40,788 bases of DNA from Actinoallomurus sp. (GTDB lineage Bacteria; Actinomycetota; Actinomycetes; Streptosporangiales; Streptosporangiaceae). This document shows, piece by piece, positions 29,341-40,788 of this stretch. Location: contig DASQPY010000105.1 in NCBI GenBank assembly GCA_035643735.1, forward strand, positions 1 to 40,788, written 5' to 3'. Position 1 is the first letter of the stretch; every line of letters begins with the position of its first letter. The translations under genes were made by a program, and so were the position numbers. A model generated the notes under the pieces. It did no database searches and was not told where the DNA came from. It saw only the letters and a list, made by a program, of their open reading frames with translations.

Positions 29341-31344
29341 TCAGTCGTTGTTCAACGTCGTCTTCTGCACCTGGAGCAGGAACTCGGCGTTGGACTTGGT
29401 CTCCTTCATCTTCTCGATGAGGAGCTCCAAGGCCTGCTGGGTGTCGAGCGCGTGCAGCACCCGGCGCAGCTGCCAGACGACCCGCAGCTCCTCCGGAGCC
29501 ATCAGGATCTCTTCCTTACGGGTGCTGGAGGCATCGACGTCGATGGCCGGGAACACGCGCTTGTCGGCGAGCTCGCGGCGCAGCCGCAGCTCCATGTTTC
29601 CGGTGCCCTTGAACTCCTCGAAGATGACCTCGTCCATCCGGGAGCCGGTCTCGATCAGCGCGGTGGCCAGGATCGTCAGCGAGCCGCCGTTCTCGATGTT
29701 GCGGGCGGCGCCGAAGAAGCGCTTCGGCGGGTACAGCGCCGTGGAGTCCACACCACCGGACAGGATCCGGCCGCTGGCCGGGGCCGCAAGGTTGTACGCA
29801 CGGCCGAGACGGGTGATCGAGTCGAGCAGCACGACGACGTCGTGACCGAGCTCGACGAGCCGCTTGGCCCGCTCGATGGCCAGCTCGGCGACCATGGTGT
29901 GGTCGTCGGCCGGGCGGTCGAAGGTCGAGTGGATGACCTCGCCCTTCACCGTCCGCTGCATGTCGGTGACCTCTTCAGGACGCTCGTCGACCAGAACGAC
30001 CATCAGGTGGCACTCGGGGTTGTTCTTGGTGATCGCGTTGGCGATCGCCTGCAGCACCATCGTCTTGCCGGCCTTGGGCGGCGAGACGATCAAACCACGC
30101 TGGCCCTTGCCGATCGGGGCGACGAAGTCGATGATCCGCGTGGTGAGCTGCGTCGGGTCCTGTTCGAGGCGCAGCCGCTCCTGCGGGTACAGCGGGGTCA
30201 GCTTGGAGAAGTCGACGCGGCCCTTGGCCTGCTCCGGCTCCATGCCGTTGACCGTGTCGAGGCGGACGAGCGCGTTGAACTTCTCGCGCCGTTCACCCTC
30301 GCGCGGCTGGCGCACGGCGCCGGTGATGACGTCGCCCTTGCGCAGGCCGTACTTGCGGACCTGGGCCAGCGAGACGTAGACGTCCTGCGGGCCCGGCAGG
30401 TAGCCGGTGGTACGGACGAACGCGTAGTTGTCGCGAATGTCGAGGATGCCGGAGACCGGGATCAGGACGTCGTCCTCGTTGATCACGGGCTCGGCCTCGC
30501 CGTAGCGCTCCCGGCCGCTTCCGCGACCGCGGTTGCGCTCGCGGAACCGTCCGCGCCTGCGCCCGCGACCGCCGCCGTCGTCGTCGTCATCGTTCTGACG
30601 GTCGTTCTGGCGCTGACCCTGGCCGCCGCGCTGACCCTGGCCGCCGCCGCGGTTGTCGTCGCGCTGGCCACGGCTGTCGTCACGCGGTCCGCGATTGTCA
30701 TCGCGCTGCCCGCGGTTGTCATCGCGCTGCCCGCGATTGTCGTCACGCTGACCGCGATTGTCATCGCGCTGGCCGCGATTGTCATCGCGCTGGCCACGGC
30801 TGTCGTCACGCTGACCGTCACGGTTACGCTGACGCTGACGCTGACGCTGCTGGCCCCCGCCGTCACGACCACCGGCCTCACGGCCGTTCTCGCGGCCGCC
30901 GCCGTCGCGGGTGCCGCTCTCGCGCGCACCGGCCTCGGAATCGGCCGCGTCGGTCTTGACGTCCTGCTGGCCCTGCTGGGCGGCGTCGTCGCGCTTGGGC
31001 GCGCGCTCGCGCCGTGGCTGCTGGGACTCGCCGCGCTCCGTCTCGGCGGCGACCGGCGCCGTCGTGGTCTCACCCTCGCTCTTGGGCGACGATGTCGCCT
31101 GGTCACCGCCGCCGGCGTTCTGCGCCTGCTTCTCCTGGATGGCAGCGATGAGCTGGCTCTTGCGCATGCCGCCCGTGCCGCTGATGCCGAGGCTGGTAGC
31201 AAGGGCCTTCAGCTCGGGCAGCACCATCGCCGACAGACCCGTACCCGTGCGGCGACGCCGCGGAGCAGGAGCCGATTCTTCGGCAGGAGTGGCGTCAGGC
31301 GCCGTTGTAGCTGCGTCCGTGAGGAGTTCGGTGGATTCGCTCAC
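29341..31344 (-). CDS. rho: Transcription termination factor Rho with long N-terminal insertion
   Basis: DVYVS, PIGKGQR, PPKAGKT, DERPEEVTD and FKGTGNME. Confidence 0.98.
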   Translation of the reverse strand: MSESTELLTDAATTAPDATPAEESAPAPRRRRTGTGLSAMVLPELKALATSLGISGTGGMRKSQLIAAIQEKQAQNAGGGDQATSSPKSEGETTTAPVAAETERGESQQPRRERAPKRDDAAQQGQQDVKTDAADSEAGARESGTRDGGGRENGREAGGRDGGGQQRQRQRQRNRDGQRDDSRGQRDDNRGQRDDNRGQRDDNRGQRDDNRGQRDDNRGPRDDSRGQRDDNRGGGQGQRGGQGQRQNDRQNDDDDDGGGRGRRRGRFRERNRGRGSGRERYGEAEPVINEDDVLIPVSGILDIRDNYAFVRTTGYLPGPQDVYVSLAQVRKYGLRKGDVITGAVRQPREGERREKFNALVRLDTVNGMEPEQAKGRVDFSKLTPLYPQERLRLEQDPTQLTTRIIDFVAPIGKGQRGLIVSPPKAGKTMVLQAIANAITKNNPECHLMVVLVDERPEEVTDMQRTVKGEVIHSTFDRPADDHTMVAELAIERAKRLVELGHDVVVLLDSITRLGRAYNLAAPASGRILSGGVDSTALYPPKRFFGAARNIENGGSLTILATALIETGSRMDEVIFEEFKGTGNMELRLRRELADKRVFPAIDVDASSTRKEEILMAPEELRVVWQLRRVLHALDTQQALELLIEKMKETKSNAEFLLQVQKTTLNND
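30649..30816 (-). repeat. 8 x 21-bp tandem repeat in rho encoding G(Q/P)RDD(N/S)R
   Basis: Eight heptapeptide units visible in both DNA and translation. Confidence 0.9.
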
Positions 31345-34593: not shown

Positions 34594-35901
34594 CTACTCG
34601 TCGCCCTCGACGCGCATCACGCTGGCGACCTCGCGGACGATCTCCAGGTCGTGCAGGCCCTCGATGGTGGCCGACAGCGCGCCGTCGGGGGCCCGGTGGG
34701 TGACGATGACCAGCTGCGCCTCCCTGCCCTGGCCCTCCTGGCGTACGGCCTGGATCGACACGTCGTTCTCGGCGAACGCGTCGGCGACCCTGGCGAGCAC
34801 GCCGGGGCGGTCGGCCACGTCGAGCGCCACGTGGTAGCGCGTGACCGTGTCGGCCATCGGCAGCACGGGCAGGTCAGCGTAGGTCGACTCGGCCGGCCCG
34901 CGCGTGCCGTTCACGCGGTTGCGGGCCACCGCGACGATGTCGCCGAGCACCGCACTCGCGGTCGGCGCCCCGCCGGCGCCCGCGCCGTAGAACATCAGCG
35001 ATCCCGCCGACTCGGCCTCCACGAACACGGCGTTGTACGCCTCGCGGACGCTCGCGAGAGGGTGCGAGCGCGGAATCATCACCGGGTGGACGCGGACCGA
35101 GACGCCGCGGCCCGCGCGGTGCTCGTCCGACGGCACCCGCTCACAGATCGCCAGGAGCTTCACCACACAGCCCATGTCCTTGGCGCTGGCGATGTCGGCC
35201 GAGGTCACGTCCGCGATCCCCTCGCGGTGCACCCCGGCGGCGGTGACCCGCGTGTGGAACGCGAGCTGGGCCAGGATCGCCGCCTTGGCCGCCGCGTCGA
35301 AACCCTCGACGTCGGCGGTCGGATCCGCCTCGGCGTACCCCAGGGCCTGCGCCTCGCCAAGGGCCTCGGCGAAGCCGGCGCCGGAGGAGTCCATCTGGTC
35401 GAGGATGTAGTTGGTCGTGCCGTTGACGATGCCCATGACCCGCTGGACGTGGTCGCCGACCAGCGACTCCCGCAGCGGGCGCAGCAGCGGGATGGCGCCC
35501 GCGACGGACGCCTCGTAGTAGATGTCGGCGCCGTACTCCCTGGCCGCGCCGAACAGCGTCACGCCGTCCTCGGCCAGCAGCGCCTTGTTGGCCGTGACGA
35601 CCGACTTGCCGGACTTCATCGCGGCGAGCAGCAGGGCGCGCGCGGGTTCGAGGCCGCCGATGACCTCCACCACGATGTCCACGTCGTCGCCGGTCACCAG
35701 GCCCATGGCGTCCGTCGTGAGCAGCTCGGGCGGAACGCCCTCACGCCGCTTGTCCAGCCGGCGCACGGCGATGCCGGCGAGCTCGAGCGGGACACCCACG
35801 CGCGCGGCGAGATCGTCGGCCTGCTCGCGCAGGAGGCGTACGACCTCGGTGCCGACGACGCCGCAGCCGAGCAGCGCGATCCTCAGCGCCGGCCGGGTCA
35901 T
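34594..35901 (-). CDS. hom: Homoserine dehydrogenase with ACT domain
   Basis: [35 protein letters not shown] and DRPGVLA. Confidence 0.96.
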
Positions 35902-37277
35902 GGCGACACCTCCAGGCGCAGCAGGTCGTCCTCCGTCTCCCTGCGGAGGATCAGGCGGGAGCGTCCGCCGCGTACCGCCACGACCGCCGGCTTGGGCACG
36001 TGGTTGTAGTTGTTGGCGAGCGAGCGGCAGTACGCGCCGGTGGCCGCCACCGCGACGAGGTCACCGGGCGCGAGGTCCTCGGGCAGCCACAGGTCGCGTA
36101 CGACCATGTCGCCGCTCTCGCAGTGCTTGCCGACGAGCCGGCTGAGCATCGGCGCGGCCTCCGAACGCCGCGAGGCGAGCACGCTGGTGTACTCCGCGCC
36201 GTACAGCGCGGTCCGGATGTTGTCGCTCATGCCGCCGTCTACCGAGACATAGGTACGGAGGCCGTCGAGGGGCTTGACCGTGCCGACCTCGTACACCGTG
36301 ATCCCGCCGGGCCCGGCGATGGTGCGGCCGGGCTCCACGGTCAGCCGCGGCACCGTGAGGTTCCGCGTCCGGCAGGCACGGGTGATGATGCCGCTCAGGT
36401 TGTCGGCGATGTGCTTGGGGTCGAGGGGGTCGTCGCCGTCGAGGTAGGCGATGCCGTAGCCGCCACCGAGGTCGAGCTCGGGCAGCTCGACGCCGTGTTC
36501 GTCGCGGATGGCCACCAGAAGGTCCACGACCCGGCGGGCGGCCAGCTCGAAGCCGTCGGTGTCGAAGATCTGCGAGCCGATGTGGGAGTGCAGGCCGGCG
36601 AGCTCCAGCTCGTCGAGCGCGAGGACACGCCGGGCGGCCTCCAGCGCCGTCTCACGGGCGAACCCGAACTTCTGGTCGTCGTGCGCGGTGGCGATGAACT
36701 CGTGCGTGTGCGCCTCGACGCCGGTGGTGACGCGGATCATCACCTTGGGGCGTACGTGCTTCTCCTTGGCGAGGTAGCCGAGCCGGGCGACCTCCTCGAA
36801 GGAGTCGAGCACGATGTGCCCGACCCCGGCGTCGAGAGCGCGGGTCAGCTCGCCGACCGACTTGTTGTTGCCGTGGAAGGTGATCCGGTCGGCCGGGAAG
36901 CCGGCGTGCAGCGCCACGGCGAGCTCGCCACCGCTGCAGACGTCCAGGCCCAGGCCCTCCTCGGCCACCCACCGGGCGATCTCGGTGCACAGGAACGCCT
37001 TGCCAGCGTAGTAGACGTCGCCGTCGGAGAAGGCGGTCTTGAAGTCGCGGCAGCGGGACCGGAAGTCGTCCTCGTCGTAGACGTAGAGCGGCGTGCCGTA
37101 CTCCCCCGCGAGATCGCGCACGTCCACACCGCCGATCGTCAGGGCACCGTCGTCCCGGCGGGCGCTGCGCGGCCAGACATCGGCCGCGAGCACGTTGAGG
37201 TCGTTCGCCGGCGGCAGCGGGTGATCCTCCGGCAGCACGTCGGCGTGCCGTGGCCCGGCCGGGTGAACTCGGCTCAT
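35898..37277 (-). CDS. lysA: Diaminopimelate decarboxylase
   Basis: [32 protein letters not shown] and GAY; ATG at 37277 after GGAGAG. Confidence 0.96.
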
Positions 37278-37311: not shown

Positions 37312-38064
37312 TCACAGGCGGTCGTCCGGCATCTCGCCGAGCATCCGCAGGCCGTTACCCAAGACGATACGGACGGCCCTGGCCAGGCCGAGCCGGGCCG
37401 TGTGGAGCTCGCCGGCGCGCTCGTCGCCCTTGGGCAGCGCCGGGCACTGCTCGTGGACGTCGTGGTACGCGTCGGCGATCTGCTCGAGGTGCCGGATGAA
37501 GGGACGGAGGGTCTGCTGCCGCACCGCCTGCTCCGCCCGGCCGGGGAAGTCCGCGAGGAGCCGCAGGAGCACGCGCTCGCGGGGATCCTCCAGCGGTCCG
37601 ACCCTGTTGTCGGTGGTCTCGTGGACACCGAGGTCGACGGCGTGCCGCCGTACGCCACTGGCCCGCGCGTACGCGAACCGTACGCGGAAGCCGGGGTTGT
37701 CGAAGGTCAGGGGACGCGTGGGCCAGGTCGTCGCACCGTCGTAGGGGATGGCCGTCAGGCCGTACGTCTCGTCGATCCGGGCGATGAGCGGCGCGTCCGT
37801 CGTGATGGTCAGGAACCCCGGCCCGGTCACCCGAGCGGTGCGGACGCCGGGCCGTTTCGCCACCCGCCTGGCAAGGGTGGCCGCCACATCGGGCGCGGGC
37901 CGCCCCGCGAGATTGGCCAGGCGCAACGGAAGCGGCGTGGCGTAGTCACCGGCCGCCGTGGCCTCGATCGGCACCCGGTCGGGTACGGGAACGGCGAACT
38001 CGCCATCGGCCACCGCATCACGCACGGCGGCGATGACGGCACTGCTCAGCTCGCCCGGGGTCAC
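37312..38064 (-). CDS. ArgS-related protein with N-terminal and DALR anticodon-binding domains but no catalytic domain (NrtL-like)
   Basis: GDYAT..LRLA...GPGFL (ArgRS N-domain) joined by a short linker to DNP.F.VRFAYAR...[20 protein letters not shown] (DALR); no HIGH region; 250 aa. Confidence 0.85.
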
Positions 38065-38119
38065 GTGCGCGAGGCTACCCGGGGTCACGGGTACGAGACC
38101 AACCGACCAGCATGTGAGA

Positions 38120-38548
38120 TCACGCGCTGTCGTCGGGGTTGTCCCTGTCGTCTGTGGGATCTTCCCCGGGAACGGCGGCCGCGCCGGCCAGCTCGCGGAC
38201 CGTACGAATCAGCTCCGAGGGGTCGAACGGCTTGGTCACGTAGGCGTCCACACCGATCTCGTGCCCTCGCCTGATGTCGTGCTCCTGCGCCCGCGCTGTG
38301 ATCATCACGACCCGGATGCCCTGGGTCTCGGGATCCTCACGCAGCTTCACCGCCGTGACCCAGCCGTCGAGCCTGGGCATCATGATGTCGAGCGTGATCA
38401 CATCCGGATCGACCTCGCGCACCTTCTCCAGACAGTCCTGCCCGTCGACAGCCGTCGCCACCTCGAACCCCTCCAGTTGGAGGTTCACGGCGATGAGCTG
38501 GCGGATCACCTCGTCGTCATCGACGACCAGCACGCGTCCAAGGGTCAC
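38120..38548 (-). CDS. Single-domain (CheY-like) response regulator
   Basis: VLVVDDD, LDIMMP, ITA and TKPF; no output domain; GTG start 7 nt after TAGCTT. Confidence 0.88.
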   Translation of the reverse strand: MTLGRVLVVDDDEVIRQLIAVNLQLEGFEVATAVDGQDCLEKVREVDPDVITLDIMMPRLDGWVTAVKLREDPETQGIRVVMITARAQEHDIRRGHEIGVDAYVTKPFDPSELIRTVRELAGAAAVPGEDPTDDRDNPDDSA

Positions 38549-38733
38549 GGCCGCCAAGCTAGCGGGTCGACCGGTGTGAACACGCGGATAACCGCAACGT
38601 GCGGCATCATCGTTACCGGGCAGACGACCGACCGAAACCAGCATGTAGCCGTGGGACACCGGCGCCCAGCCCCACTCGCACGCCGCCCGGGCGCAGCCGG
38701 TAGCTTGATGCTGGTAATCTCTACCCGTCCCGA

Positions 38734-38805
38734 GCCCCCTTAGCTCAGGGGATAGAGCACCGGCCTCCGGAGCCGGGTGCGCTGGTTCGAATCCAGCAGG
38801 GGGCG
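38734..38805 (+). tRNA. tRNA-Arg(CCG)
   Basis: Acceptor stem GCCCCCT/AGGGGGC, D arm, anticodon arm CCGGC-CT-CCG-GA-GCCGG and GGTTCGAATCC T loop; CCA not encoded. Confidence 0.97.
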
Positions 38806-39303
38806 CCTCACAGCAGCCAGCATGATCTGGCGACCTGCATTAGACACATAGAGAACGGCTCGAACTCTGGTCTCACTGATTCCGGCCCGTTCTTGCTGTC
38901 CAGCACCGTTCACGAGAGGCCTACGCGAGAGTTTCTCGTCGGTTCAAGCGGGCTGAGGGATAACTCGCGCTAAGCAAATGTCTCCTCGCTGCGATGACCC
39001 GAGCGAGGGAGTTCGGGCTCGCGAACCCGGCTGTGTGCCGTCGAGACCTGGATCCGGACGGCTGGAGTCATCAGTGCCGGGGAGACGCCTTCCTCAGATG
39101 GCCGCGCATCACGCCGGCCAGACCGTGGCGATCATCGAGGCCCGGCGACCGCTCCGCGCCGTAGCGCCCGCCTGATCCGGCGCACCACCGCCGGACCGCC
39201 CCCGCGGCGACCGCGCGACCTCTGCGCCGCACCGCTGCCGGAGGCCCACCGGCACCTACTCGACGTCCGCGGGCGAAGCCCCAGGTCAAGCGCCTTTCGG
39301 TTC

Positions 39304-39328
39304 GTTAGGCCACGGTCGTATCGGGTAG
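39304..39328 (+). promoter_or_regulatory. SigB/SigF-type stress promoter
   Basis: GTTA-N15-GGGTAG upstream of the 39365 gene. Confidence 0.45.
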
Positions 39329-39364
39329 CTCTGCCAAGAGAGCTTCGAGGTGGGAGGAGGAGAG

Positions 39365-39733
39365 ATGTCCGAGCAGAGCCACCCGGTGCAAGGTGAGCAC
39401 AAGTATCAGCAGGAGGTCACCTCGCCCGAGGAGCACGAAGAGCACGCCGGACGCAGTCTGGTGACGACGGACCATGACGTGATCCGCCAGTGGGCCGAAG
39501 CCCGGAACGCGAAACCCGCGACGGTTCCAGGCAGTGACTACGGAGGACGTCCGGGCCGCCTGCTGTTCGACTTTCCTGGATACGGCGGCCAGGACCTGCA
39601 GGAGATCTCCTGGGAGGACTGATTCAGCACGTTCGACGAGCGCGAGCTCAATTTCCTTTACCAGGAGCACAAGAAAGACGGCTCACCGAGCAACTTCTTC
39701 CGACTGGAGAACCCGCAGGACACCGATCGCTGA
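39365..39733 (+). pseudogene. Hypothetical protein interrupted by one in-frame TGA
   Basis: Strong RBS; TTDHDVIRQWAE...ISWED*FSTFDERELNFLYQE...SNFFRL continues in frame past TGA 39620-39622. Confidence 0.75.
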
Positions 39734-39892
39734 CCCCCTGACTTCATCAATGGGGCACGTAGGGTTCCAGAAGTTCCCCGTGCACAGATAGCCGTGCACA
39801 GATAGACGACCCAATTCGCCCAAGCCGCATCCGGACGGCGCCATCGTGTGTCTGGCGGCGGCGCGGTGCCACACTGGCCCGGCGCGATCAGC

Positions 39893-40054
39893 TTACGACT
39901 TGGTGTCCGGCTCGTGCCGACGGGTTTCGAAGCCGGTGTGGCCGTTCGGGCAGCGTGGGATCTTCTCCCCCTGTTTCACATGGACCTTCTCGTCGCACTG
40001 GGCACAGCAGAAGTCACCGATCTTCTGTGCCTTCTCTCCGGCATGGGCTGTCAA
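39893..40054 (-). CDS. Small zinc-ribbon protein (53 aa)
   Basis: GEKA..GDF.CAQC...IPRCPNGH (CxxC...CxxxH); TTG start after GAGGAGGT. Confidence 0.6.
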   Translation of the reverse strand: MTAHAGEKAQKIGDFCCAQCDEKVHVKQGEKIPRCPNGHTGFETRRHEPDTKS

Positions 40055-40265
40055 CGCCTCCACCTCCTCGCTCGACACGCGAGCCGATGTCGCGGGTGGG
40101 ACCGACGGCCGCCGGCGATGTCCCCAAGGTGGAGCACGGCCATCCGGTCGGAGTCGGTCTCGGACAGCTGCAGTCGACGTTCGTCGCCTTGACTGCCTTG
40201 ACGACGTCGTCGCTGGTGAACACCTTGATTCTATCGCCGACGATGGTGGCTGAGGTGCGACGTCT

Positions 40266-40368
40266 CTACCGTGGTTCGACCGTACGAAGCAGGTCCTCGT
40301 CGACCACGGTGTCCTCCATCAGTTCCTTGTAGCCGACGTGGTCGAAGACGACGGTAAGCCGGCCTTCG
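40266..40368 (-). pseudogene. C-terminal fragment resembling the tail of actinobacterial RecQ-like helicases
   Basis: EGRLTVVFDHVGYKEL....V..DLL*; nothing recognisable upstream. Confidence 0.4.
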
Positions 40369-40459
40369 CTCGATCGAGCGGTGGCGTTCGGCGCCTCGAT
40401 CGCCGTCGGAAGGCCGCTGGTGAAGAACCGTTGAAGGGGGCCACCCACCGCCTCTCACC

Positions 40460-40665
40460 GTTACCAGCAGGACGCGGCGGTTGGTGTCGTCGGCCCGCGG
40501 CGGTCGCCGGAGTCGAGCAGGTCCGCGGCGTAGCCGTGCTGGACGTACTGGCTGAGCGCGACGACGGCCAGGGTGGGCGCGGCGTAGTTCCACAGCCGCA
40601 CGCAGCCCCTCGTCGGCGTAGCCAGGAGGCATTCTGATGTCGGTGATCAGCAGGTCGGGGTGTGC
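40460..40665 (-). pseudogene. Collapsed NarL/LuxR response regulator remnant
   Basis: HPDLLITDIRMPPGYADEGLRAAVELR, frameshifted VVALSQYV..GYAADLL, then directly the terminal DDTNRRVL. Confidence 0.7.
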
Positions 40666-40788
40666 TCGGCCACGGCGCTGAATCCTCTCTGCGGCGAGCG
40701 CAACAATCCGCCCTCGCCATCGGGACCTCCGATACGACCGGAAGGCAGCGGGTAGGGCTGTCAGTGATGGTGCCGACACAGCGCGCCG

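Follow-up and report, generated by a model that had tools for sequence, protein, structure and literature searches.

Why should an actinomycete keep, just ahead of lysA, a gene specifying the two outer domains of arginyl-tRNA synthetase (ArgRS) and nothing of its catalytic core? The question is raised by a contig of Actinoallomurus sp., of which we analyzed 40,788 nucleotides (hereafter the window). A sequence-only reading of this DNA had proposed a tRNA clamp that does not aminoacylate and had likened it to NrtL, a Streptomyces protein.

The remnant and its locus

On the minus strand a response regulator is followed by the ArgRS remnant and, after 34 nt, by lysA, hom, thrC, thrB and rho; a tRNA-Arg(CCG) gene is divergent (Table 1; the last four minus-strand genes were named from their translations). 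The sequence-only reading set the remnant beside this tRNA gene: the tRNA is indeed near, but the response regulator intervenes. Nor does a special tie between the two hold up: a tRNA-Arg(CCG) gene adjoins 49 of 74 intact argS loci, an ancestral arrangement, and is missing from the available DNA at all 30 loci of one remnant group.

Table 1. Features of the remnant locus (window positions, or residues of the remnant where so stated).
Feature	Position	Strand	Remarks
hom (homoserine dehydrogenase)	34594..35901	-	named from sequence and synteny; dN/dS control
lysA (diaminopimelate decarboxylase)	35898..37277	-	start 34 nt past the remnant stop
NrtL-like ArgRS remnant, 250 aa	37312..38064	-	Pfam, AF2 model
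Remnant Add1/N domain	residues 1-c.97		
Remnant linker	motif at residues 114-126		new motif W-x-P-x-T-F-x-N-P-G-F
Remnant DALR/Add2 bundle	residues c.123-250		
TAGCCT, -10-like hexamer of predicted leaderless promoter	38077-38072	-	7 nt ahead of the remnant GTG
Single-domain CheY-like response regulator	38120..38548	-	syntenic with S. coelicolor SCO5351
tRNA-Arg(CCG)	38734..38807	+	ancestral neighbor of argS

Read from its second GTG (38064) the remnant has 250 aa (258 aa from the GTG at 38088) and ends GEMPDDRL. Pfam places Arg_tRNA_synt_N at residues 10-88 (36.7 bits) and DALR_1 at residues 130-243 (56 bits), with no match to the catalytic domain tRNA-synt_1d (PF00750); inspection of the sequence for motifs of the HIGH or KMSK type found neither. 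Some 20-30 residues (c. 97-120) stand where ArgRS has ~320, in keeping with the linker of roughly 30 aa described before. The picture of a 250-aa in-frame ORF with both tRNA-recognition modules, expected to match the two outer profiles and not the core, and coding for a non-catalytic protein, is thus borne out. Without PF00750 and the HIGH/KMSKS-type motifs the remnant does not belong with ArgRS by its core; against the arginine-tRNA ligase profile TIGR00456 it scores 54 bits, under the cut-off of 261.65. Genes of this kind are often mis-annotated as arginine-tRNA ligase.

The claim that the gene has its own promoter stands in modified form. A scan of the remnant locus for sigma-70 promoters and terminators returned none. 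The GTG is nevertheless preceded, at 7 nt, by TAGCCT. Of 74 intact argS loci, 73 have TANNNT 5-9 nt ahead of the start codon, compared with one at a control offset. Remnant loci of the close groups (7/7 and 11/11), of g52 (7/8; a genus labelled 'Streptomyces' from the NrtL scores of its proteins, which exceed the cut-off) and of g65 (2/2) show the same pattern, which is found at only 14/30 and 1/22 loci of two remnant groups with poorly callable starts. Because it matches that of intact argS loci, this arrangement supports the prediction that the remnant took over the leaderless promoter of argS, with transcription predicted to begin at 38064, and it also favors the 250-aa start. A GTGACCCC start is repeated within 38065-38110, and the upstream hexamer reads TGGTCT here and TAGTCT in some congeners. 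The hexamer before the GTG at 38088 is likely the older promoter; there has been an apparent turnover, in which a new TAGCCT arose before the second GTG and the leaderless start shifted by 24 nt, the gene being leaderless throughout.

Several features of the surroundings deserve record. The response regulator is 95% identical to its Actinoallomurus orthologs and has TAGCTT 7 nt ahead of its GTG, a leaderless-type start as in SCO5351, which is also leaderless; the available part of PMC9739842 reports SCO5351 as a positive regulator of antibiotics and sporulation. Beyond the tRNA, a small ORF (39365-39733, plus strand), the first part of which has no Pfam match, is interrupted by one in-frame TGA (39620-39622), and more gene fragments lie in the region from 38810 to 40788, which may be a tRNA insertion site whose DNA has decayed. 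The rho gene (29341-31344, minus strand) has a long N-terminal insertion with tandem RGQRDDN repeats, of a sort usual in actinobacteria. Elsewhere in the genome are two tRNA arrays, one of 11 genes (contig C581, 20251-21297) and one of six (C630, 9-528). Among their genes are another tRNA-Arg(CCG) and a tRNA-Arg(GCG), the latter unusual; the arrays likely derive from a phage or integrative element.

Descent of the remnant and selection on it

The genome (65% complete) encodes, on contig C42, a full ArgRS of 578 aa that belongs to another lineage and is the only full ArgRS found in it; the separate argS expected by the sequence-only reading therefore exists. To see how general this situation is, lysA and PF00750 were located in 151 genomes of the class and the DNA ahead of lysA was taken from 100 (four unpublished genomes are counted in this survey and in the congener tally; no other claim depends on them). 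The 100 loci comprised 73 with an intact enzyme of ~550 aa, 18 with remnants and nine unclassified at that step, among which G013 and G128 later gave remnants and G145 a single DALR match. A second ArgRS is present in 18/18 remnant genomes versus 5/73 genomes with an intact slot gene, 68 of the 73 having no second, high-scoring ArgRS; since these counts span non-independent kin they describe a pattern and carry no p-value. One genome, G001, retains both an intact slot gene and an ArgRS of the second type. In the sample of the order, PF00750 was matched in 120 of 121 genomes.

In trees built from the N and from the C domains the remnants fall on the side of the slot-type enzymes, and the hypothesis that the remnant duplicates the genome's own working argS was rejected (AU p=3e-7). 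Remnants of g52 and of Streptosporangiales form one clade (97/92), a grouping that long branches could also cause; grouping of remnants with the slot gene that G001 retains intact was not rejected (AU p=0.073). Those of g65 nest among intact enzymes (100/94), suggesting that truncation there had a separate origin, and a single origin for all remnants is not the best tree, although it is not rejected (AU p=0.076). The G128 remnant has no firm grouping. By these phylogenies the remnant is a descendant of the ancestral gene of the argS-lysA slot and not of the working argS. We infer that replacement came first and decay second, and the patchy spread of the second-type ArgRS makes its acquisition by transfer likely.

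Other replacements and copies were seen in passing. The sole catalytic ArgRS found in G173 (L070) is of a third type, with a 573-aa frame and a HTSINPNASPHVG motif; it is unlike that of the congener G150, which suggests separate replacements within genus g65. Two g52 genomes (L223 in G331, L224 in G314) carry, besides NrtL, an extra intact ArgS of actinobacterial type (558 and 553 aa) away from lysA, and a congener (L270, G371) has a second actinobacterial-type argS fragment, broken and likewise away from lysA.

A full-length, stop-free match to the remnant (242-252 aa) is present in 20/20 congeners, none of which has a full-length argS here, so a recent local deletion or an assembly artefact was rejected; the nearest named relatives, Actinoallomurus species, are 67-78% identical. 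Across the 21 congeners 84 of 250 positions are invariant, and omega is 0.11 (LRT 1422 against omega=1). The suggested dN/dS check thus gives values of ~0.09-0.11, far under 1, and with the frame intact in 20/20 congeners pseudogene status was rejected. In seven named or close loci omega is 0.089 for the remnant, compared with 0.040 for lysA, 0.031 for the regulator and 0.034 for hom (NG86: remnant 0.16-0.32, lysA 0.09-0.22). Unsaturated M0 fits elsewhere give remnants 0.12-0.23, compared with 0.03-0.05 in lysA and 0.05-0.06 in the domains of intact ArgS; fits with a tree length above 15 were regarded as saturated and dropped, namely both 'Streptosporangiaceae' domains, the 'Nocardiopsis-like' N domain and the intact f33 and f10+f15 N domains ('Nocardiopsis-like' and 'Streptosporangiaceae-like' being simply our labels for remnant groups). 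NG86 medians in g52 are 0.52 (N), 0.77 (middle) and 0.50 (C), partly through GC3 saturation, and NG86 also shows weaker selection on the remnant in the g3 group. Overall, selection on the remnant is relaxed 2-5-fold relative to lysA and intact ArgS domains: as estimated from these alignments, purifying selection is real but relaxed.

NrtL is kept in 98 of 101 genomes of g52. The middles of remnants range from ~340 low-complexity residues to under 20, and both ends are retained through in-frame losses from the middle (c.550 down to ~205 aa); in g52, 9 of 20 hand-picked low-scoring loci have separately been shortened to 249-293 aa, their two ends remaining in the same frame. Remnants drift towards a G/A/R/P-rich composition with low-complexity insertions. 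Some are frameshift-split or truncated (L115, L167, L273), L164 has a degenerate N part, other remnants with degenerate N domains occur besides the long-linker group, and no remnant was found in G003, G005 or G145. A frameshift is also seen in one intact enzyme (L094), and assembly errors may therefore account for some of the breaks.

By position the remnant heads the lysA transcript, often abutting lysA: the gap is -4 to ~35 nt at many loci, and over all loci the two genes may overlap or lie more than 1 kb apart. In several genera the two are parted by another gene or by more than 1.5 kb. At eight loci (L174, L175, L075, L178, L183, L184, L255, L276) a membrane-anchored protein of ~270 aa is inserted between them, the HEYAH motif of which we take to be zinc-peptidase-like. 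In a single genome, G128, there is no lysA near the intact remnant of 294 aa, which faces a convergent gene for a subtilase.

tRNA-contact residues and expression

The AF2 model of the remnant (63 sequences) has a pLDDT of 93.4 and a pTM of 0.87. Its best structural matches are all ArgRS, and superposition of residues 1-250 on 1iq0 aligns 230 residues over both domains (Z 19.2, rmsd 3.6). Add1 and DALR are predicted to pack as in ArgRS; the model agrees with the earlier claim that the two modules are kept in an ArgRS-like arrangement.

Bacterial arginine identity is given as A20, C35 and U/G36 in the available part of PMC9976931, and that of PMC3956977 locates a Tyr/Phe-Asn/Gln pocket for A20 in Add1. 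This pocket would correspond to the motif GFxN. The sequence GPGFLN of 74/74 intact enzymes has become GPGFLT in the remnant, so that the Phe of the pocket is kept and its Asn lost. That Asn is present in all 74 intact enzymes, in 28/29 replacement enzymes and in 7/8 g52 members; in the 72 close homologs it is Thr in 66 and Ser in five (replaced in at least 71), and the D-loop Phe, F84, is kept in all 72. In the DALR domain YVQYAHAR has changed to RVRFAYAR and FYD to VHE, the close homologs showing QY to RF and FY to VH; from the 1f7u alignment we take the replaced positions to be yeast Y488, Y491 and Y565, anticodon readers. The specificity for tRNA-Arg that had been supposed is not supported by these replacements.

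Two arginines, R134 (72/72 close homologs) and R140 (70/72), match yeast R495 and R501 in the same alignment and are presumably backbone contacts; yeast M607 was also among the residues that we took as tRNA contacts for mapping. The long-linker group lacks R134, with His in 15 of 16 aligned members, and the conserved arginines may be structural. The Gln of the YVQYAHAR helix, present in 74/74 intact enzymes, is Arg in 72/72 close homologs, and the same change is found in other remnant groups (11/11, 23/30 and 7/8, plus G173 and G128); the underlying change from CAG to CGG is favored by GC-biased mutation. The sequence-only reading had pointed to the terminal DDRL in place of ERM. A terminal Leu also ends 10/29 full-length, working ArgRS of the replacement type, and the change from Met to Leu was therefore rejected as a sign of lost function. 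The register of the C terminus is kept: Gly stands at position -8 in 72/80 remnants from six groups. A motif W..P.T[FW].N.GF, absent from the 74 intact enzymes, occurs in 19/20, 11/11 and 26/30 members of three remnant groups.

For expression we turned to S. coelicolor SCO5352, taken as NrtL by synteny and size. In the available part of PMC4895711 this gene (347 codons, annotated 'arginyl tRNA synthetase', between SCO5351 and lysA) has about as much mRNA per kb as lysA and does not track a 20-fold rise of SCO5351; that part lists no TSS for SCO5352 or lysA, and hom has its own. SCO5352 has 3-10 normalised ribosome footprints in these data (TE 0.009-0.016), and its footprints per kb, small counts, are 9-25-fold under those of argS (SCO3304). 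The protein would accordingly be scarce, which argues against titration of tRNA-Arg and so against the bulk sequestration once proposed. A link to lysA-hom expression, also proposed, sits poorly with the TSS of hom and with the persistence of the remnant away from lysA. Among the actinorhodin-affecting insertion mutants of two PMC6585502 supplements SCO5352 does not appear. Of four soil and rhizosphere RNA runs with small word shares, X1 and X3 gave short contigs, ~95-97% alike, that match parts of the ORF; they show neither strand nor level and may be DNA, and are no proof of expression.

Possible roles and known relatives

We place about equal weight for and against the leading reading, that the remnant of the ancestral argS works like a free-standing tRNA-binding module of an aminoacyl-tRNA synthetase (aaRS), scarce and of loosened specificity. 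A second ArgRS of another lineage likely took over charging and the slot argS then lost its catalytic domain; both leftover domains are maintained by selection and likely make up a scarce, non-charging binder of tRNA shape with relaxed isoacceptor specificity. F84 of the Add1 hairpin would stack on the D-loop/elbow, and R134 and R140, with the newly fixed R129, would grip the backbone of the anticodon arm, the CCA end being left free. Given the replaced base-reading residues and the low rate of synthesis, such a protein would work on a small subset of RNAs, helping tRNA to fold, shielding it or passing it to another enzyme, rather than titrating tRNA-Arg. A bolder version, which we regard as rather doubtful, is that repeated swaps of ArgRS (two to four) carved the old enzyme into an elbow-plus-anticodon-arm clamp with a convergent Gln-to-Arg change, and that nearly every Streptomyces and Streptosporangiales genome harbors a hidden general tRNA chaperone or carrier that leaves the CCA end free for other enzymes.

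Against the tRNA-binder reading we count the relaxed selection, the G/A/R/P drift, the loss of R134, the broken or absent copies and the very low translation. Its main rival, in our view somewhat unlikely, is a slowly decaying relic held in cis. As the cistron that opens the lysA transcript, itself leaderless, it would need an open frame and a harmlessly folding product, though the protein has no job. Retention of the leaderless-type argS-lysA promoter, a stop that overlaps or lies near the lysA start at many loci, mRNA per kb matching lysA with no separate lysA TSS listed and very low translation (S. coelicolor, from the available data), and an indel-rich, GC-drifted sequence that is lost or broken in some genomes all agree with it. 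Yet a jobless protein would hardly show an omega of ~0.1 with a third of its congener positions unchanged, an exact C-terminal register even where lysA is far away or a new motif fixed in three groups; both domains have outlasted repeated deletions though a short leader peptide would suffice, and intact remnants occur without a downstream lysA, in G128 and others.

The sequence-only reading itself, in which a clamp or sensor specific for tRNA-Arg either competes with ArgRS or tunes lysA by binding an mRNA element that resembles tRNA, we consider improbable. It draws on the ArgRS-like geometry of both modules in the model, on the Asn of GFxN in the g52 (NrtL) members and on the conserved position ahead of lysA; the altered A20 pocket and anticodon positions of the close homologs, the low footprint counts in the available S. 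coelicolor data and the tRNA adjacency, ancestral and lacking in one remnant group, speak against it, and a leaderless start leaves no 5' UTR, while the distance to lysA varies. That the retained surface serves a protein partner (an old ArgS contact, the replacement ArgRS, LysA or the remnant itself), RNA binding having gone, seems quite improbable. The fixed alternatives at base-reading positions and the new W/P motif at the former junction with the catalytic domain would suit such a role, but the polar residues that are best conserved are arginines, placed by the 1f7u alignment on the tRNA-facing helix of ArgRS; the net charge, formerly about -7, is now about -1 to +2 (partly GC drift), and the 20 longer matches, all plain ArgRS, include no fusion partner, a weak argument.

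If the tRNA-binder reading is true, a non-charging role of ArgRS would come to light; if there is no such role, the locus would illustrate cleanly how operon structure can hold on to what is left of an essential gene once that gene has been displaced. Genes of this type persist in two large groups of actinomycetes that produce antibiotics; the 250-aa form offers a compact reagent with a confident model, and SCO5352 permits direct genetics in S. coelicolor.

A literature search (subscription papers and bioRxiv supplements lying outside its coverage) found no functional paper on NrtL, SCO5352 or an ArgRS paralog of this kind. NrtL is NCBIfam NF045898, 'ArgS-related anticodon-binding protein NrtL', a 327-position equivalog that 5/5 tested g52 proteins pass (439-482 bits); the remnant scores 184.3 bits, and its close orthologs 185-187, against a cut-off of 340. 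The suggested relatedness to NrtL is nonetheless upheld by architecture, and the two group together in trees (97/92, on long branches): both have N and DALR domains without a working core or HIGH/KMSK motifs, the Gln-to-Arg change, and the same slot (tRNA-Arg, response regulator, gene, lysA). The remnant differs in its linker (~20-30 aa versus ~100), its loss of the A20-pocket Asn and its new WPxRPxTFDNPGF motif. It is a minimal variant of the NrtL kind, neither a formal member of NF045898 nor an ArgRS. With the lysA-slot ArgRS (~550 aa, TIGR00456) it shares position, promoter pattern, N and C domains and C-terminal register, but that enzyme is ~320 aa longer and has a catalytic domain with PTGPxHxG and xSKRAG motifs.

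Free-standing tRNA-binding aaRS modules have been shown biochemically in Trbp111 and the Arc1p/YtpR-type proteins, which have an OB fold. By analogy with these, non-catalytic tRNA binding is proposed for the remnant, which has another fold and two ArgRS modules in one chain. Glu-Q-RS/YadB, HisZ and MshC are aaRS paralogs that keep the catalytic domain (PMC9437257, the available part of which does not mention ArgRS paralogs). Like the remnant they arose by duplication or displacement of an aaRS with loss of domains. Among the aaRS paralogs studied, most retain the catalytic core, and these three have lost tRNA binding; the remnant, which has lost the core and keeps only the tRNA-recognition halves, is their mirror image.
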